Made by a program: the position numbers and the translations under genes. Positions 23,274 to 31,088 of a DNA stretch of 49,537 bases are shown here, in pieces. Each line of letters starts with the position of its first letter. The first letter of the stretch is position 1. Source of the DNA: Candidatus Thorarchaeota archaeon (GTDB taxonomy: Archaea > Asgardarchaeota > Thorarchaeia > Thorarchaeales > Thorarchaeaceae); assembly GCA_048884785.1 (NCBI GenBank), contig JBHLQM010000020.1, forward strand, positions 1-49,537, given 5' to 3'. The notes under the pieces were generated by a model. It was not told the DNA's origin and searched no databases. It saw only the letters and a list, made by a program, of their open reading frames with translations.

Positions 23274-24241
23274 TAGACATCCTCCTCTTCATCTTCATCT
23301 TCATCTATATGGACCACTACCTCACAATCGCCTTCATCAGTTTCAAGGTCCTGGGAACCCTCATTGGTGTTCTTCTTGTCTGAAGCCACCAAAGCTTCCT
23401 CTAGTCTGTTGGTGAGCCATTGAGCAAGTCGATATGCCAATCGTCCTTCAACAGTTACATAGTAGGTGCCCCTAACCTCGCCTTTGATAACATAACCTGC
23501 ATCAACAAGAGGGGTGAGGTGATGCGTCAGGGAGCTTCCAGTTTTTCCTGTTTGCTGCTCCAGATCATTGAAAGTCTTACCGCCCTCTTTGAGAAAATCA
23601 AGAATCTTCAACCGTTCCTCACTCCCGAGCGGCCCAATGACACGAGCTACGCGTTCAGGGGAGATTTTCTCATAGTTTTTGGATCTCCTAGATCCTTTGC
23701 GCCTCGCCTTCTTGCTGAAACGCATATGCGGAATCTTGATGTTTTCAACATTCTTGAGCGCCATCTCTAGTTGTTCACCAAGCCCTTCCATCATATCTTC
23801 AAGGTCCTCAGTCAATGGTGAGAAGTCAACAATAGCTGCACGGCGTGGAGCCCTCGGCACCTTTGGAGGACGGGGCGGAGGAGGCGGTCTTGGAATTCCA
23901 GATTCATGTAGACGCTGTCCTCTTCGAAAACGCTCTTCCTTGAATCTACGTGCATCCTGAATCTCACGCCTGAGCTCCTCCTTCATGCGGCGAAATTCCT
24001 CCAATTCATGTCGCATTTCGGCTATTTCCTGAAGCTTCTCACGCATTTCGTCCTTCGTCTCGTCTACAGTTTCTCTTGTTTCTTTGATGCTGTCGTGAAG
24101 TTCGTCCTCGAGATCTGAGAGTTCATCTTCCTTGTCAGACAGCTCGTCTTCAAGATCTTCCAGCTTCTCACTATCAGGATCTTCATCATCGGAATCGAAC
24201 TCATCTTCATCCCAATCGAAATCATCTATGTCGTCGAACAT
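23273..24241 (-). CDS. ArsR-type wHTH regulator with acidic N-terminus, coiled coil and Pro-rich linker
   Basis: LGSEERLKILDFL...TFNDL...SSLTHHLTPLVDAGYV...YYVTVEG. Confidence 0.8.
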   Translation of the reverse strand: MFDDIDDFDWDEDEFDSDDEDPDSEKLEDLEDELSDKEDELSDLEDELHDSIKETRETVDETKDEMREKLQEIAEMRHELEEFRRMKEELRREIQDARRFKEERFRRGQRLHESGIPRPPPPPRPPKVPRAPRRAAIVDFSPLTEDLEDMMEGLGEQLEMALKNVENIKIPHMRFSKKARRKGSRRSKNYEKISPERVARVIGPLGSEERLKILDFLKEGGKTFNDLEQQTGKTGSSLTHHLTPLVDAGYVIKGEVRGTYYVTVEGRLAYRLAQWLTNRLEEALVASDKKNTNEGSQDLETDEGDCEVVVHIDEDEDEEEDV

Positions 24242-24264
24242 TGTCTTTCACATATAATGTAATT

Positions 24265-24326
24265 TATTACAGTATTCTTACTGTAATATTATACATATAA
24301 ACTTACTGTAATACGCTACAGTATTC
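24265..24326. promoter_or_regulatory. Clustered TACTGTA/TACAGTA operator repeats upstream of the wHTH regulator
   Basis: Perfect inverted repeat TATTACAGTA-N4-TACTGTAATA (24265-24288). CTTACTGTAATA recurs at 24302-24313, and TACTGTA-N6-TACAGTA lies at 24304-24323. Confidence 0.6.
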
Positions 24327-24531
24327 AATTCGTTTGCCAGACCGTTAACTATATTAAAGTTTTTTTGCAAATTGGCATTTGGACTGCAATAAATGGCGCA
24401 AAAAGCCATTTCGTGCAGAATACCCTTATTAATGAGTTAGCTACCGTTAACTCCTCGATTATCGAGGGGTGTGCACCTGCATTGTACTAATGCATTGTAG
24501 GGTGTTCGTCCAAATATGAGGTGTAAAAGAA

Positions 24532-24732
24532 TTGGCTAAAAAGAAAGCACCAGTTAAGCTACCAACCTTCGTTGTCAAATCGGCAATCAAGGAGTTCGCG
24601 AAGACAAATGACATGATGGTGGGCTCTGACGCCTATGATGCCATCAATGTGAGAATCGGTGAGATGCTCATGGCAGCAGCTGGCCGATGCAAAGAGAATA
24701 AGAGAAAGACCTTGAAGGCCTACGATCTCTAA
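24532..24732 (+). CDS. Short histone-fold protein (truncated alpha3) with a Lys-rich N-terminus
   Basis: FVVKSAIKEFAK...MMVGSDAYDAI...AAGRCKENKRKTLKAYDL carries the histone R(K)T...D motif. GAGGTG RBS and TTG start. Confidence 0.85.
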   Translation: MAKKKAPVKLPTFVVKSAIKEFAKTNDMMVGSDAYDAINVRIGEMLMAAAGRCKENKRKTLKAYDL

Positions 24733-24758
24733 ATCTCTCAATCATAAATAGTGCATAT

Positions 24759-24803
24759 GGGGAGGGCGGTGCAACTGTCCTCCCCCATCACTACATCTTT
24801 TTC
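24759..24803 (+). terminator. Hairpin + U-tract terminator of the histone gene
   Basis: GGGGAGGGCGGT/ACTGTCCTCCCC 12-bp stem with two G-U pairs, then TCTTTTT. Confidence 0.65.
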
Positions 24804-24853
24804 TGTGAACACACTGTTCATATTCAAGTGCAGTATACAAATTTGGAAAGAGT

Positions 24854-25126
24854 ATGACTAACGAGAATCATAGCAAGAAAAAATCCTGGAAATATTATGC
24901 AGCCTATTTGGTGGTGCTTCTTCCAATCTATGCATTCTTCGCTCTTCCACTTGCACAGATTCCTCTTGCCTACTGGCCTTCAGCATTATTCTTTGCATTT
25001 CTGGCCACCTTCATATTGATTGGATGTAGTATTGGTGGTGGCTATGACGCGGGGTGTATCTGGCACTACCATGGCACGCCTGAATGCATCCATAGACCTG
25101 ATGTAGAAAGCATGAGGAAGGACTGA
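24854..25126 (+). CDS. Small 2-TM hypothetical protein with Cys/His-containing C-terminus
   Basis: Two hydrophobic helices; CIWHYHG...CIH. Confidence 0.55.
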   Translation: MTNENHSKKKSWKYYAAYLVVLLPIYAFFALPLAQIPLAYWPSALFFAFLATFILIGCSIGGGYDAGCIWHYHGTPECIHRPDVESMRKD

Positions 25127-26029
25127 TTATCGATTCTCCCATTGCTCGAATAGGTAATCAAGTACGCTTTTCCAAATCTTGCCTTCAACATACTTGTTTT
25201 CAAAGTTTTCAGTGTTTGTCCATTTCTGCAAAGCAGCCTGTGCCTCAGGGGTCCAGTCCTTGGTCAATGAAACTTTGTCCAGATAGCCGAGACTCACTAG
25301 TGCCTCTTGTATTTTTGTCGCAATAGAACCTCCAATTTGATAGAGATTCGATGGGTCTTCGCGGCTGAGGAGCGTCATATCGTAAATCTTGAAGATACGT
25401 TCGAGTTCGTCAATTGGCCTAGGATGGTCATCAACACGAACATCCACATATCTATCATTCCCACCCTCATATCCTCCGCCTTCACGCACCACCAGTATTG
25501 CTGCAGACTGCATTCCTCTTCGATCCCCACCTGCAGCCTGACCAGCTTTCAGAGCAGCAAAGAGCTTGTCAATAAGATCACCTTCAGTCTTCTCATACGA
25601 CTCTGCCATATCCACAACAACAGCTTCTCCTGCAAGAATATTGCCTTGACATGTATAGCCATCTCCTGCCACATGACCAGCCCAATCCATACAATCCCTT
25701 CCCGTATGTGTTGCTACTCTCCCCTTTGCGTCAACTATACCAACCTGTCTATGAGCTTCTCCTTCATCACTTGAAACTAATTCTCTTAATGTTCTGGAGG
25801 CTGATTTTCCCTCTTTCATCATTTCTAAACCTCGATGTCCATAGGAGATGTTTGCCCAAGCCTGAGTAGCTATTGCCCCCACCTCGGCAACAGCCCAAGG
25901 AACAAGTGCCCCCACTGCAGGAAATTTGGACTGCACAATTACTCCAAGGTCGCCGTTACTAGGGTCTCTAGCTACCACCGAAAAAGTACTAGGATTAGAT
26001 AGCTTACGTATGGATGGGTTTGACATCAT
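25127..26029 (-). CDS. DUF1028 family Ntn-hydrolase with a C-terminal putative peptidoglycan-binding-like domain
   Basis: STFSVVARD, GAIATQA, RQVGIVD, QGNILAG, AGGDRRG.QSAA and DVRVDDH motifs. Confidence 0.9.
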   Translation of the reverse strand: MMSNPSIRKLSNPSTFSVVARDPSNGDLGVIVQSKFPAVGALVPWAVAEVGAIATQAWANISYGHRGLEMMKEGKSASRTLRELVSSDEGEAHRQVGIVDAKGRVATHTGRDCMDWAGHVAGDGYTCQGNILAGEAVVVDMAESYEKTEGDLIDKLFAALKAGQAAGGDRRGMQSAAILVVREGGGYEGGNDRYVDVRVDDHPRPIDELERIFKIYDMTLLSREDPSNLYQIGGSIATKIQEALVSLGYLDKVSLTKDWTPEAQAALQKWTNTENFENKYVEGKIWKSVLDYLFEQWENR

Positions 26030-26122
26030 TATAGCTCCTTGGTACAGGTAAGGCAATCTGACCAATATGACTGTCGGTTTCACGCCAGTCTTCTACCCAT
26101 GGCGTCGGCTCCTATGATTCTT

Positions 26123-26593
26123 CTATTGACAGGTAAAAGCCTTGGAGCAGTTTTGACAGGTTATCTCATCCGGTAGAAGAGAATAATGGTATCTGGCTCC
26201 ACAATGTGGACATATAACAAGACGAAGGCCCGATATGAATCTTGAAGGGGAAGAGTCATCGCCCAGAAGTCTGCGGATAGCTTTCACTGCCATGTCCTCG
26301 ATTTTGCCAGGACTCATTCTAATAGGCGATCCAAAAGTGGCCTTTCCATCAACAATAAGGGCACCCTCTTCAGCAGGCTCGCTGTATTCAAGACTGATTA
26401 CGACAACGCCAAACTGGCCAACTGAAAAAACTGCGAAGGCATGAGTTTCTACAGGCGCTGGCCATATCTTGAAGGAAAGCAGGTTAAGACTTCCCCAGTG
26501 CCATGGCTTAACTTCATACCATGATTCTTGAATGCGCCTGAACAAAGAGGAAACATTACTCGTATCAAGACTACGAACTGTGATTTCTTGCAT
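26123..26593 (-). CDS. Hypothetical protein with a C-terminal zinc ribbon
   Basis: CPHCG...CQNCSK. Confidence 0.6.
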   Translation of the reverse strand: MQEITVRSLDTSNVSSLFRRIQESWYEVKPWHWGSLNLLSFKIWPAPVETHAFAVFSVGQFGVVVISLEYSEPAEEGALIVDGKATFGSPIRMSPGKIEDMAVKAIRRLLGDDSSPSRFISGLRLVICPHCGARYHYSLLPDEITCQNCSKAFTCQ

Positions 26594-26689
26594 TACAATT
26601 AGTGATTAACAAGAAACCGCATTAACATTTCCTAGCAGTATCTGCGGAAGAGGCATTAGATCCAAAAGATAAAAGAAAGAAAAAGAAGT

Positions 26690-26713
26690 GGCGTCGGCGT
26701 ATTACTCGACGCC
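26690..26713 (-). terminator. Hairpin terminator of the 26734-26931 gene
   Basis: GGCGTCG/CGACGCC stem; a long T-rich tract follows on the minus strand. Confidence 0.6.
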
Positions 26714-26733
26714 CAGAGTAGTGAACCCCAGAA

Positions 26734-26931
26734 TTATTTGGTCTTCTTGACTTTTGCTTTTGCCTTCGCTTTCTCAGCATCCAGCATCGCTTTGAACTGT
26801 GCATCATATTTTGTAGTCATAGCGGCCTTTTCTTCAACTGTGATCAGTTTATACTTAGCAATTGCAGCCACACCAGCCTTCCAGGCTTTTTGGTCTGCCT
26901 TTATTTTATCACTCTTTGTTGGTACAGACAA
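26734..26931 (-). CDS. Small Lys/Ala-rich basic protein (65 aa)
   Basis: GAGGGA RBS, TTG start, own terminator; KAKAKAKVKKTK tail. Confidence 0.7.
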   Translation of the reverse strand: MSVPTKSDKIKADQKAWKAGVAAIAKYKLITVEEKAAMTTKYDAQFKAMLDAEKAKAKAKVKKTK

Positions 26932-27112
26932 TTTTTTTGCATCCCTCTAACAGAGACCCGAATACGCATTAGTCACGATGATATAATGCATTATTCAGTA
27001 TCACAACCTTGTGCTAACTTGAATATGAACTATTCTCTACTCAACATAAGTGTATGATTCAAATCAGAGTAAGAGTCAGGGGATAATATTTGAAAAATAG
27101 TCAGGAGCGCAC

Positions 27113-27223
27113 TCACGTCGCTTCCAACGCGAGTACCTCCGTTATTGTAAGATAATCACGACGCCGAAGGCTCTCCTCATCGGCATTGCTTTTAGAAACA
27201 CAACAGAAATTATCATCTGTCAT
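27113..27223 (-). CDS. Microprotein D, 36 aa (MTDDNFCCVSKSNADEESLRRRDYLTITEVLALEAT)
   Basis: Hand-translated. ATG lies 10 nt after the stop of ORF C, with AGGA upstream; a T-tract follows. Confidence 0.5.
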   Translation of the reverse strand: MTDDNFCCVSKSNADEESLRRRDYLTITEVLALEAT

Positions 27224-27233
27224 GGTTCAATTC

Positions 27234-27332
27234 CTACCGATTGTATATGTAGGCGCGAGCAATTGCTTCACAGCAGATCCTTTTTTGACCGGCTTTACCA
27301 TTGATCTTTCTTTCGTTCTTTTCGATTGCCAA
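27234..27332 (-). CDS. Microprotein C, 32 aa (MAIEKNERKINGKAGQKRICCEAIARAYIYNR)
   Basis: Hand-translated. GGAGGTTGAGGT RBS before TTG; C-terminus paralogous to ORF B. Confidence 0.65.
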   Translation of the reverse strand: MAIEKNERKINGKAGQKRICCEAIARAYIYNR

Positions 27333-27352
27333 GATACCTCAACCTCCTTGCT

Positions 27353-27460
27353 CTATACCTTCTTGAAAAGGAAGGCATGTGCGACAGCATCAGCCACGTG
27401 GACCTTTGCCATCTTTCTGCTCATCTTCACATCATCTGATCCACTCTTTGCAAGAGCCAT
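27353..27460 (-). CDS. Microprotein B, 35 aa (MALAKSGSDDVKMSRKMAKVHVADAVAHAFLFKKV)
   Basis: Hand-translated. GGAGGT RBS; TGATG overlap with ORF A. Confidence 0.65.
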   Translation of the reverse strand: MALAKSGSDDVKMSRKMAKVHVADAVAHAFLFKKV

Positions 27461-27570
27461 CAGTTGCTACCTCCATCGCTGCTAAAGGCCTCAAACAAGT
27501 TCTCGTTTGAATGGAGCCGCTTATTCGAAACCTTCCAACTTGAGAGCTTTCGTCTTTCAAGGTCATCCAT
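27460..27570 (-). CDS. Microprotein A, 36 aa (MDDLERRKLSSWKVSNKRLHSNENLFEAFSSDGGSN)
   Basis: Hand-translated. GGGTG RBS; stop overlaps the ORF B start; TATA-like AAATATATAAG at about 27634-27644. Confidence 0.5.
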   Translation of the reverse strand: MDDLERRKLSSWKVSNKRLHSNENLFEAFSSDGGSN

Positions 27571-27794
27571 TTTGAACACCCGTTTTTTCGCGAGAATTTT
27601 TTCCTCGCATGGTAATAGTATTACCTCTGACATCTTATATATTTATCGTTACTATATTAACGTCAGATATTTTAAGCTTATGATTGAAAACTCATTTGAT
27701 ATCCCTACAAAAGCGTTCGTCGATTTGCACTACACCGAATCATCAGTGCTGAATTCGGACTGGCCGATAATGACTAGGAATTGGAAAGAGATAT

Positions 27795-28766
27795 TTGCAC
27801 CAATTGAGATACGAGATACTCGGTATTCATACTGGCGAGGAGGCCTCGAGTATTTCGAAAAGCAAACCAAAGGAAAGAACAAGTAAAATAACGACAGATT
27901 CGAAGAAATCCCGTCCCAAAAAATCTGAACCAAAGAAGAAAGCCTCAGATATGAAGAAAGCATCAAAGACCACTCCCAAGAAGAAATCCACTCCTGCAAA
28001 GAAGGCTCCTGCAAAAGCCAAGCCGCCAGCCAAACCGAAGAAGAAGCCTGTAGATCCAAAGAAAGAGCTTGAAGAACGGGTAAAACAGAATGAGAATGAC
28101 GCCCAAGCATGGTATGAACTGGGTGAGTATCTACGAGTAAACGAGGAATTCGAACAGGCAGAAGAGGCTTTGAAACAGGCTCTTCGACTGGACCAGACCA
28201 AATCGGAAGCATACAAGAGTCTGGGATTACTATACCTCTCAACTGACAGAATCGAGAAGAGTGACCAGGCCTTTCGGCAATCTGTATCTCTTCAACCAAC
28301 AAAATCCGAGTCACACTTTGAGATAGCACGGGATCTGATGAACAAAGGGGACTATATGGGTGCAATCAATGTGATAAATGATTGCTTAAAATCAAATGGT
28401 GAGGACTGTGAAGCACTAAACATGCTGGCTACAGCTCATCTCAAATCAGATGACCTTGGCAAGGCAGAGAAAGCTGCAAAGAGGGCGGTGCAGGTGAATA
28501 GCTCGTATCATGAGGGGTGGATAACACTAGGACAGGTAATGGGAGAACGTGGAAAGAATAAGGATTCCCTATCTGCCTTCCGAAAGGCAATTGAATTAAA
28601 TCCAGAGAATCCCTCATCCTTTGTCAAAATGGGAATCACCTATGTCAGAATGAAGAACTATGATGATGCGATTTCTTCATTCCAGCAGGCAATCAGACTA
28701 GACCCTGACAATGAGGCAGCGAGAAGAAATCTTGAAGTGATATACAAACATACAGGCCGAAAGTAA
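27795..28766 (+). CDS. TPR protein with a histone H1-like Lys/Pro/Ala-rich N-terminal region
   Basis: KKASKTTPKKKSTPAKKAPAKAKPPAKPKKK followed by about 6-7 TPRs. Start is uncertain. Confidence 0.8.
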   Translation: MHQLRYEILGIHTGEEASSISKSKPKERTSKITTDSKKSRPKKSEPKKKASDMKKASKTTPKKKSTPAKKAPAKAKPPAKPKKKPVDPKKELEERVKQNENDAQAWYELGEYLRVNEEFEQAEEALKQALRLDQTKSEAYKSLGLLYLSTDRIEKSDQAFRQSVSLQPTKSESHFEIARDLMNKGDYMGAINVINDCLKSNGEDCEALNMLATAHLKSDDLGKAEKAAKRAVQVNSSYHEGWITLGQVMGERGKNKDSLSAFRKAIELNPENPSSFVKMGITYVRMKNYDDAISSFQQAIRLDPDNEAARRNLEVIYKHTGRK

Positions 28767-28839
28767 GTACCAATGACGAAATAATACTGACCCATTGGTA
28801 GTGTTGTCATGAATCAGGACAAATCAAAAAGAAGAAGGA

Positions 28840-28862
28840 ACCCAGCCGTTTCCTGGCTGGGT
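28840..28862 (-). terminator. Hairpin terminator after etfA
   Basis: ACCCAGCC/GGCTGGGT stem, followed on the minus strand by TCCTTCTTCTTTTT. Confidence 0.6.
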
Positions 28863-28873
28863 ATTTGGGCTCT

Positions 28874-30073
28874 TTACCTCTCAGCCTGAACTCGCTTGAT
28901 TTCGGCGATGACCTCGGGGATTATTGCGAAGAGATCTCCTACAATCCCATAATCTGCTATCTCGAAAATAGGAGCCTCTGGATCCTTGTTGACTGCAACT
29001 ATCACATCGCTGCTAGACATGCCAGCGCAATGTTGTATTGCGCCAGAGATTCCGAGAGCAAAATAGAGCTTTGGTGAGACAGTTCTTCCAGACTGACCAA
29101 CCTGTTGTGTAGGTGGCAGCCATCCTAGGTCAACAATTGGCCGCGAGCCTCCTATTGCAGCATCAAGAAGCTTAGCAAGCTCCTTTGGAAGCTCAAGATT
29201 TGCAGGGTCTTTGATGCCACGTCCACTGCATACAATGATATCGGCCTCTTCAACAGAGATCATATCATCAGCCACTTCTCTCACTCTCTCCAGAACACGA
29301 GTACGAACCTGCACCGGACTAATGTTTAGATGTACCTTTTCAATCTCGCCTGTTCGTGACGTGTCGCGTTCTGTGGGTTTGAAGACGTTTGGCCGTACTG
29401 TTGCCATCTGGGGCCGGGTATACGGGCACAAAATCTCAGCCATTATGTTTCCACCAAAAGCAGGGCGTGTTTGGACTAGCTGACGTTCCTCATCGATATC
29501 CAACCCAGTGCAATCAGCGGTAAGACCAAGAGCTAGTCTGGCTGCAATTCTAGGGGCAAGGTCTCTGCCATTACCAGTTGCACCATAGAGGACGATAGCG
29601 GGTTTTCTTGGAGTTATCAATGATGTAACAGCGATGGTATATGCATCAGTTGTATAGTCAGCCAAGATCTTATCATCCACTATCAATACCTTGTCCGCCC
29701 CTTGGTGGATAAGCGATGGGGCTAGGCTTTCAATTTCATGGCCAAGCAAGAGTGCAACGACCTTCTCACCCAGCTTGTCTGCCAATTCACGTGCCTTGGT
29801 GACAAGCTCAAAAGATACACTTCTCAGTCTACCTTCATGAGTCTCACAAACAACCCAGACGTTCTTGTACTGTGCAATTGCCTCCTTGTCAATAGTCTGG
29901 CGCTCAATATGAATTGCATCCGCAGGACAGACCTCTTCGCACGATCCACATAGAACACACTTGTCTAGGTCGAATTTTACCTTTTTATCATCCTTCTCTA
30001 TTGCACCAAAGTTGCATGCCTTGGGGCATAGCATACAGCCTGTACAGGCATCTCTATCAAATATCAGACCCAT
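28874..30073 (-). CDS. etfA: Electron transfer flavoprotein alpha subunit with an N-terminal 2x[4Fe-4S] ferredoxin
   Basis: CxxCxxCxxxC twice; GLTADCT, RPAFGGN, QVGQSG and GISGAIQH motifs. Confidence 0.95.
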   Translation of the reverse strand: MGLIFDRDACTGCMLCPKACNFGAIEKDDKKVKFDLDKCVLCGSCEEVCPADAIHIERQTIDKEAIAQYKNVWVVCETHEGRLRSVSFELVTKARELADKLGEKVVALLLGHEIESLAPSLIHQGADKVLIVDDKILADYTTDAYTIAVTSLITPRKPAIVLYGATGNGRDLAPRIAARLALGLTADCTGLDIDEERQLVQTRPAFGGNIMAEILCPYTRPQMATVRPNVFKPTERDTSRTGEIEKVHLNISPVQVRTRVLERVREVADDMISVEEADIIVCSGRGIKDPANLELPKELAKLLDAAIGGSRPIVDLGWLPPTQQVGQSGRTVSPKLYFALGISGAIQHCAGMSSSDVIVAVNKDPEAPIFEIADYGIVGDLFAIIPEVIAEIKRVQAER

Positions 30074-30074
30074 C

Positions 30075-30872
30075 TTAGATTACCCCCTTCTCTAAAAGGA
30101 ATTGAACAAGCTTTTTCGCTGCTTCCTTTGGATCCTGGACCTCGACCTTGATGCCTCCAGATTTCCTAACAGGCGGAAACACCTTTCTGACAGTGGTGGG
30201 AGACCCTTTCAGCCCGAGTTTGTCTGGGGGAACACCCAGAGTAGCCGCATCGACCACTTCTAGCGGCTTCTTCTTTGCCTTCATGATGCCCATGATATTG
30301 GGTAAGCGTGGCTCATTGAGACCCTTTGTGGCGGTGAGAAGTACTGGCATCTTTGCGCGAATTACCTCATATCCATCATCAGTCTCTCTTCGACAGATGA
30401 CATGCTTTCCGCCTTCATCAATCTCCACCTTGCGTACATAGCATATCTGAGGGATTCTAAGAATCTCAGCAATCTCTGGACCTACTTGTGCTGTGTCACC
30501 ATCAATCGCCTGCTTCCCACATATTACAATATCATACTCCATCTTTTTGATCTGTTCAGCAAGCGTTAAAGCTGTCACCCAAGTATCTGCACCCGCAAAG
30601 ACACGGTCAGTCATATGGATAGCCCTGTCTGCGCCCATCGCCATTGCCTTGTAAAGCACATCTACAGCTTGGGGGGGACCCATGGTTATCACAGTAATCT
30701 CACTATCCTCGCCGCCATAGGCCTCCTTCAACCTGATTGCCTCTTCTACGGCAAATTCATCAAAAGGATTCAAGATGCTAGGAACGCCATCTCGAATCAG
30801 AGTTCCTGTTTCGGGGTTGACCTTTACCTCAGCGACTTCAGGGACCTGTTTCACTGGTACTATAATCTTCAA
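30075..30872 (-). CDS. etfB: Electron transfer flavoprotein beta subunit
   Basis: KQVP, NPFDEFAVE, AGADT, GKQAIDGDTAQVG and GLKGSPT motifs. Confidence 0.95.
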   Translation of the reverse strand: MKIIVPVKQVPEVAEVKVNPETGTLIRDGVPSILNPFDEFAVEEAIRLKEAYGGEDSEITVITMGPPQAVDVLYKAMAMGADRAIHMTDRVFAGADTWVTALTLAEQIKKMEYDIVICGKQAIDGDTAQVGPEIAEILRIPQICYVRKVEIDEGGKHVICRRETDDGYEVIRAKMPVLLTATKGLNEPRLPNIMGIMKAKKKPLEVVDAATLGVPPDKLGLKGSPTTVRKVFPPVRKSGGIKVEVQDPKEAAKKLVQFLLEKGVI

Positions 30873-31088
30873 TCGTACACCACCGGATTGGTTACATATC
30901 TCTGCCGTGGACAGCTTGTCCCCATTATAAGCAATACGATGTTATCATAATGGGCGAATCAGAGGCGCATTCGCCATAACATGCACACTCATACACTAGT
31001 GATTGCATTCAGCCCTCGGATGCAAATCTTCTGAGAAGTGCAGCACTAATGCTTTTAACTCCGGAGAATTCCAACGCAATGATGGAAC

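Follow-up and report, generated by a model that had tools for sequence, protein, structure and literature searches.

Here, I describe a cassette of four microprotein genes, A to D, on the minus strand of a 49,537-nucleotide stretch of DNA from a Candidatus Thorarchaeota archaeon (assembly GCA_048884785.1, contig JBHLQM010000020.1; hereafter the window, meaning that stretch at its full length). The cassette, at positions 27113-27570, belongs to a multi-copy B-C-D operon family, not described before and restricted to Thorarchaeota, of which it is a rare four-gene offshoot with gene A added and the promoter swapped. The most solid new finding lies at its 3' end, where the end of D has a dual coding, for a peptide tail and for an RNA hairpin. 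Taken whole, that is as a self-contained four-cistron microprotein operon together with the mechanism proposed below, the preferred explanation is given a probability of about 0.5; its gene-structure part, namely that the four open reading frames (ORFs) are real, conserved genes, is judged very probable from the comparisons that follow.

The initial annotation had placed four tiny ORFs on the minus strand, and every coordinate matches, as do the TGATG in which A and B overlap and the remaining gaps of 20 and 10 nt; an ATG start had been read for C, the start codon of which is TTG. The TATA-like element and the T-tract that it had noticed upstream and after D are both present, the former kept in orthologous cassettes. 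In the following list, pN/pS is the ratio of nonsynonymous to synonymous differences, each per site; G000 is the genome of the window itself, and the other G numbers are the relatives compared with it.

27635..27646, minus strand: TATA box ATAAATATATAA, which G002, G005 and G020 keep in their orthologous cassettes and which recurs in the promoter of an AsnC/Lrp-type gene.
27611..27632, minus strand: operator TGTCAGAGGTAATACTATTA, with the palindrome GGTAAT-ACT-ATTACC at 27625-27611.
27590..27608, minus strand: 5' leader hairpin of the GCGAGGA...UCCUCGC type, seen in the fold and in compensatory stem changes.
27577..27581, minus strand: Shine-Dalgarno-like GGGTG of gene A, conserved before the start codon.
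27460..27570, minus strand: gene A, 36 aa, near-neutral and hydrophilic, the extra first gene (pN/pS 0.44).
27353..27460, minus strand: gene B, 35 aa, basic, net charge +4 (pN/pS 0.41; alignment of 49 sequences).
27234..27332, minus strand: gene C, 32 aa, TTG start, basic, net charge +5, a paralogue of B (pN/pS 0.39).
27113..27223, minus strand: gene D, 36 aa, acidic, net charge -4 (pN/pS 0.74 overall; family alignment).
27104..27140, minus strand: terminator-type RNA hairpin (-26.7 kcal/mol, z -5.5; covariation).
27093..27097, minus strand: T5 tract, six bases past the hairpin; pyrimidine- or T-rich tails follow D in nearly all family loci.

The four genes are tightly packed, B, C and D each having a ribosome-binding site that lies in or just past the preceding gene. 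The site of B (GGAGGT) is embedded in the Gly-Gly codons of A; that of D is weak in the window, and A has a conserved GGTG, which stands 7-8 nt 5' of its start as GGTGTTC in G000, G002 and G005 and occurs as GGTGTTT in G020 and G342. An in-frame ATG lies further upstream of A, at 27633 within the operator, and the corresponding extension is not kept elsewhere. GC content is about 0.45 over the cassette and about 0.33-0.35 in the flanking spacers, and the purine skew of the stretch equals that of other minus-strand genes. No known RNA or tRNA was found, an Rfam covariance-model search of 24000-31000 having returned no match at E up to 1 and a tRNA search none. In the fold of the full-length mRNA, a stem of about 16 bp is predicted within the coding region of A (27430-27500, minus strand).

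A DNA search across 40 relatives recovered syntenic copies of the cassette, with 66-72% nucleotide identity, in three genomes of the same genus (G002, G003 and G005) and in one of another genus (G020). All of them keep four distinct ORFs, each with its own start and stop, and the relative frames of these ORFs vary among orthologues, B, C and D sharing one frame in G005 and A, C and D sharing one in G002. A frameshifted pseudogene of one larger gene is excluded for these two reasons. When the codon alignments are read in shifted frames, pN/pS rises to 0.7-1.5; in the proper frames it is about 0.4 for A to C, so that the view of these ORFs as protein sequences with preserved frames and under selection has stood. 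Upstream of the hairpin, 99% of 94 family loci have a D frame that stays open for 20 codons or more, a length which the other two frames attain in 59% and 9%, and about 90% of the B, C and D genes of the family start with ATG. A detail which did not survive is the Cys-Cys pair pointed out in C and in D: the pair in C is a genus-level replacement of a family-wide Ser-Thr, and that in D is not conserved.

Short, close matches elsewhere led to the family to which the cassette is assigned, and its spread was followed by the tail of D. The pattern VLALEAT-stop, back-translated from this tail and its stop codon, occurs in 47 of the 85 genomes of the window's archaeal family (Thorarchaeaceae) and in none of 315 other Asgard genomes, a reversed control giving none; with up to three mismatches the D-tail pattern reaches 57 of the 85 genomes and 14 of the 16 genera. 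A wide pattern scan of one genome per species, over 185,579 prokaryotic species, yielded 55 matches, all in metagenome-assembled genomes titled Thorarchaeota, Promethearchaeota, 'uncultured archaeon' or 'archaeon', with no bacterial or named non-Asgard record among them. In a family cassette, one, two or three B/C-type peptides come before a D-type peptide, and the genomic contexts are quite diverse. G000 alone has seven: the A-B-C-D cassette of the window, B-C-D cassettes on contigs C19, C9 and C62, and, on contigs C1, C5 and C26, B-C cassettes without D which run into MFS_1/MFS_3 transporter genes in two cases and into a gene for a 245-aa putative membrane protein without Pfam match in the third; no common structure was seen in the gaps between C and the MFS genes.

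The window has the family's tandem basic paralogues, with their MALA[KT] start and A-[IL]-x-x-A-[YF]-x-[YF] end, and a last gene ending in [DE]VLxLExT, encoded by a 12-bp hairpin which a U-tract follows; its B and C each align with 49 family members. It is a variant and not a typical member, since its promoter element, its leader and gene A differ from the core pattern (see below), and by profile search an A-type gene is present, in one copy each, in 6 of 86 genomes and 3 of 16 genera. Pfam-A and NCBIfam profiles do not match A, C or D, and for B they return only DUF7185 (E 0.076; 13.5 bits, the cut-off being 27). A protein atlas search with B gave no usable match, a 40-aa D-type peptide (L020) matched itself alone among 5.8 billion predicted proteins, and nothing was found in the literature on a B-C-D microprotein family. 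The initial annotation thus judged well in seeing a polycistronic microprotein system and in knowing of no described family for it; it did not see that the genome has seven such cassettes, that the family spans the clade or that the tail of D doubles as an RNA hairpin. Two genomes have loci with peculiarities of their own: in G020 (contig C35, L005/L013) two tandem cassettes lie about 700 nt apart, the upstream one with a third B/C-like ORF replacing A, and in two of the five near-identical cassettes of G014 (L049 and L050) the D frame meets no stop over 134-148 codons upstream, where it overlaps B and C in another frame, probably incidentally.

As regards the dual-coded end, the hairpin is under selection as an RNA and at the same time encodes the near-invariant VLxLExT tail. 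In the family, 12 bp are formed by the last seven codons of D, the stop codon and the next four bases, with the consensus GUGCUCGCGUUG-GAAG-CAACGUGAGCAC, and a pyrimidine/U-tract follows. The stem of the window's hairpin is longer, with 16 pairs and the stability listed above, and the span takes in the codon before the last seven, those seven, the stop and nine bases past it. Over 94 family sequences 91% of the cells are paired (19-48% in slid controls), and changes on both sides are seen in 5 of the 12 pairs (41 cells), which was reached by none of 500 shuffles. The pair between the third position of the Val codon and the third base after the stop (GC 52, AU 24, UA 3, GU 11) is free of selection bias, because the partner base lies outside the search pattern. 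Elsewhere in the stem, Leu CTC with a TGA stop gives way to CTT with TAA or TAG, and three changes of the peptide itself go with compensating synonymous ones: Ala to Met (GCG to ATG) with ACG to ACA in VLMLEAT, Leu to Trp (TTG to TGG) with GCA to GCC in VLAWEAT, and Thr to Ala (ACG to GCG) with TTG to CTG in VLALEAA. G-U pairs are frequent, which favours pairing at the RNA level, on the sense strand, over a DNA palindrome. A case in point is a closed Thorarchaeota chromosome (L109, G342 C1, 91-560) in which A, B and C are intact behind the same operator and a decayed D of 26 codons ends in VLVLATI, the 12-bp hairpin being intact with a GNRA-type GCGA loop.

The D peptide is likewise, on comparative grounds, constrained beyond what the hairpin accounts for, because the L-[ST]-L-x-[DE] segment 5' of the hairpin is kept despite synonymous variation and because in genus g12 the peptide is retained while the stem is weakened. 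Constraint is low over the Ser-rich, variable body of D; the end of D, L-[ST]-L-x-[DE]-V-L-x-L-E-x-T, is near-invariant (TEVLALEAT in the window). Two other uses of this end were considered and rejected. Long-range pairing of the mRNA tail to the first start codon is not seen, the hairpin staying local even when the whole 525-nt transcript is folded; the sole contact between the two ends is a weak pairing of an A-run with the U-tract, and the A-run is missing from the G002 leader. As for selenocysteine read-through of the TGA of D, in-frame conservation is lacking past the stop, and some variants have TAA or TAG instead.

The B, C and D peptides are all hydrophilic. Family averages are 34 aa, net charge +4.8, isoelectric point (pI) 10.4 and grand average of hydropathy (GRAVY) -0.59 for B; 30 aa, +5.9, pI 10.7 and GRAVY -0.71 for C; and 37 aa, -2.6 and pI 5.0 for D. 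B and C share one layout, beginning with MALA[KT], varying in a basic middle part and closing with a conserved stretch of the S-T-x-A-[IL]-x-x-A-[YF]-x-[YF]-R-R type, and the claim that they are paralogous is borne out by a profile built from B-type peptides, which also matches the adjacent C-type ORFs. In the window, B runs from MALAK to an A-x-x-A-[FY]-x-[FY] helix, and AlphaFold2 models it as a single helix over residues 8-33, with moderate confidence (mean predicted local distance difference test score 67). Variants of the D tail are associated with types of C end, an association which tracks subfamilies and which the window breaks, so that it carries no information. The median intergenic gap in family cassettes is 6 nt, and a strong Shine-Dalgarno sequence precedes C in 51 and D in 43 of 56 cassettes, contained in the Arg-Arg codons that close the gene before it (CGG AGG TAA and similar); the Arg-Arg ends are partly explained by this embedding. 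In core cassettes, B is without Shine-Dalgarno in 50 of 56 and starts about 34 nt past a TATATATACT box, its leader being very short for that reason.

That box is the TATA box of the core-cassette switch, which is made of a GTCACA-N3-TGTGAC palindrome, GTGACC, the box itself and the short leader before B. The window cassette is without this switch and has another TATA-plus-operator block, a leader of about 45 nt and the added gene A. The transcription start is predicted, from the distance to the TATA box, to fall inside the operator. The two leader hairpins folded jointly reach -13.8 kcal/mol (z -3.8), and in four genomes the leader stem carries compensated changes (GCGAG/CTCGC, GCGAGAA/TTCTCGC, GCGAA/TTCGC and GCGGAATT/AATTCCGC). 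The block, of about 50 nt, has one other perfect copy in G000, 5' of the gene on contig C98 for a 320-aa protein with two AsnC-type helix-turn-helix domains, and the operator element is 90-97% identical at the promoters of this AsnC/Lrp regulator in four related genomes; co-regulation of the cassette with, or by, the 320-aa regulator may be inferred from this sharing. The regulator's locus (L011, G000 contig C98, 1490-2539) has about 50 nt near-identical to 27660-27611 of the window, and its protein begins with MDDLD, that of gene A with MDDLE. This likeness, together with the shared promoter, hints that the start and promoter of A came from a duplicated 5' end of the regulator gene. The core operator, too, occurs elsewhere: GT[CA]ACA-N3-TGTGAC with a TATA box stands before a 420-aa gene with a bactofilin domain (G000 contig C59, about 7765, minus strand; L172) and before a 359-aa gene without Pfam match (contig C3, about 85794, plus strand; L171), which suggests a small regulon.

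From these parts a mechanism may be proposed. The operon would be gated by the AsnC/Lrp-type protein or by a factor which controls that protein as well, and the hairpin with its U-tract would serve as operon terminator and stabiliser of the 3' end. A ribosome finishing D would have to melt the hairpin, so that translation of D and formation of the hairpin would be mutually exclusive. B and C would be soluble, basic, single-helix microproteins acting in trans, the conserved aromatic-basic C-terminal helix contacting an anionic or protein target, and the acidic, disordered D would be their partner or antagonist by way of its conserved C-terminal segment. This trans-acting pairing of basic and acidic peptides is a best guess only, and a tentative one, held at well below even odds.

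Several points weigh against the proposal. The target of the B/C helix is hypothetical, and the tie to the AsnC/Lrp regulator is a matter of shared promoter sequence. The N-terminal two thirds of D are near-neutral in their evolution, with the pN/pS of 0.74 given above. The charges of B and C add up to about +10.7, against about -2.6 for D, and D cannot, on account of this imbalance, simply neutralise them one to one. Moreover, three of the seven G000 cassettes are without D, and these suit export or transporter-linked roles at least equally well.

Such roles make up the alternative which survives best, an unlikely one nonetheless, in which B and C are exported as leaderless cationic peptides, antimicrobial or signalling, via MFS or EamA carriers, and D is an intracellular antagonist or immunity factor. 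The D-less cassettes that run into MFS_1/MFS_3 genes or the 245-aa protein gene speak for it, and so do an EamA transporter upstream of six cassettes and promoters under tight operator control. Aureocin A70, garvicin KS and enterocin L50 of the Bacillota are tandem paralogous leaderless cationic peptides, amphipathic or hydrophobic in nature, and the Thorarchaeota cassettes, some of which have transporter genes beside them, resemble such multi-peptide bacteriocins in having two to four tandem cationic paralogues of about 30-35 aa, made without leaders, in one small operon. Yet the strongly hydrophilic B and C do not have the hydrophobic or Trp-rich faces that mark membrane-active bacteriocins, they have no signal peptide, a third or fourth peptide is acidic and the host is an archaeon. 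MFS and EamA carriers usually transport small molecules; there is no transporter near the window cassette, nor any ABC exporter, dedicated exporter or immunity gene in the window; and the peptide ends are near-invariant across genera, unlike those of diversifying pheromones and bacteriocins. A related comparison is with AcrZ, SgrT and M. mazei sP36, small proteins that modulate transporters, most known examples being membrane peptides or single genes; the three G000 cassettes that continue into MFS or membrane-protein genes resemble them, and the window cassette, without transporter, does not.

A toxin-antitoxin-like arrangement, with basic B and C inhibiting growth, for example by binding ribosomes or nucleic acids, and acidic D folding onto them and blocking them, is quite improbable. 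The opposite charges, the make-up of D, disordered in its body and conserved in its C-terminal segment like many antitoxins, the repressor-gated promoters and the multi-copy, autonomous and patchy occurrence of the cassettes in varied contexts would all fit; there is, however, no match to a toxin fold or family, the putative antitoxin comes last in gene order, D-less cassettes exist and the charge stoichiometry is a misfit. Type I systems of the hok/sok kind, with a hydrophobic membrane toxin and a long-range fold-back of the mRNA to the start region, differ further, in that the peptides here are hydrophilic and the 3' hairpin is local, with only the weak A-run/U-tract contact.

Slightly less credible again are purely cis-acting ORFs, whose peptides would do nothing by themselves and whose translation, that of D above all, would control the hairpin, mRNA stability or read-through. 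In the E. coli pyrBI operon, the leader ORF pyrL is translated through an intrinsic terminator hairpin, and the ribosomal exit tunnel holds roughly the length of the conserved last 12 or so residues of D. Like pyrL, D overlaps a hairpin and U-tract, its stop codon lying within the 3' arm, and the position of the ribosome would exclude formation of the hairpin; the general principle that a ribosome blocks a terminator hairpin is set out in one published account (PMC5021804). That only these last residues of D are conserved and that in G342 the hairpin outlasts the D peptide are in keeping with such a role. Unlike pyrL, D is the last gene and not a leader, its tail is itself conserved and its host is archaeal. 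The B-C-D units stand alone, with no consistent gene downstream for them to regulate, since what follows them varies from locus to locus or is on the opposite strand, and seven copies of a regulator that regulates nothing would be unlikely; in addition, selection at the protein level is clear all along A, B and C.

The hairpin lends itself to one more reading, a long shot, in which B and C are arginine-rich-motif-like binders of the near-invariant GAAG-loop hairpin that closes their own mRNA, the very one that encodes the D tail. The N protein of phage lambda is an arginine-rich-motif peptide that binds the boxB RNA hairpin, and the cassette resembles that pair in that one transcript encodes both a short helical peptide, basic and with an aromatic residue in a key role, and a small, conserved hairpin whose purine-rich loop is of the GAAG/GAAA type. 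It is a resemblance only, given a stem of 12 bp as against 5 bp, a tetraloop and no Nus-type machinery. If true, B/C binding to the hairpin would set termination, 3'-end stability or D translation, and the circuit would be an archaeal analogue of lambda N/boxB within a dual-coding element.

The genes around the cassettes bear on the remaining two readings, both of them raised in the initial annotation. At 93 loci the neighbours are heterogeneous, with PolX upstream in 22 and EamA, amino-acid kinase, alpha/beta hydrolase, flavodoxin, GNAT and LRR genes at a few loci each, and this argues that the cassette is autonomous, whereby the TPR-ligand and precursor-peptide readings lose their main support. 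Precursors of ribosomally synthesised and post-translationally modified peptides, with the gene of the modifying enzyme at some other place in the genome, are very improbable. Multiple dispersed small paralogous genes and Tyr-x-Tyr-Arg-type ends, possible cross-linking sites, would suit them; no maturase was found in a Pfam scan of the ten largest neighbour clusters from these loci, in agreement with the earlier remark that no modifying enzyme is adjacent, and the conservation of both peptide ends around a variable middle is the reverse of a conserved leader with a variable core, the Arg-Arg end being at least partly due to the embedded Shine-Dalgarno sequence. TPR domains can bind C-terminal peptides and a divergent TPR gene lies next to the cassette in G000, G002 and G005, but that adjacency is synteny within genus g1, absent beside the four-gene variant in G020 and G342 and beside more than 90 core B-C-D cassettes, and short-linear-motif ligands of the TPR protein are hardly tenable. 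RRNPP-type signalling, in which a peptide gene is paired with a TPR receptor across lineages and the precursor bears a secretion signal, does not fit either, the TPR neighbour being limited to g1 and the peptides having no hydrophobic N-terminal segment.

Other features of the neighbourhood are of local extent. The TPR protein (27795-28766, plus strand) has, before its repeats, a Lys/Pro/Ala-rich N-terminal tail of about 95 residues that is similar to a linker-histone tail. Just 3' of the cassette, a 65-aa Lys/Ala-rich protein without Pfam or NCBIfam match is encoded at 26734-26931 (minus strand); it has the same position in G003 and G005 and is absent there in G002. A DUF1028 gene downstream of the cassette is syntenic only inside the genus.

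No closer relatives of eukaryotes are known than the Asgard archaea, whose small-protein repertoire is almost unannotated. The present analysis documents a clade-wide family of microprotein operons in which as many as seven cassettes occur in one genome, the operators are dedicated, the genes are coupled in translation and the D-type peptides are essentially never called as genes (one match among 5.8 billion proteins). The dual-coded end brings overlapping constraints, those of a peptide tail, a stop codon and a compensating RNA hairpin, into one stretch. If the peptides are regulators, toxins or signals, they would constitute a new, lineage-specific layer of control in Thorarchaeota; otherwise, the loci would still be useful as a benchmark for small-ORF annotation.

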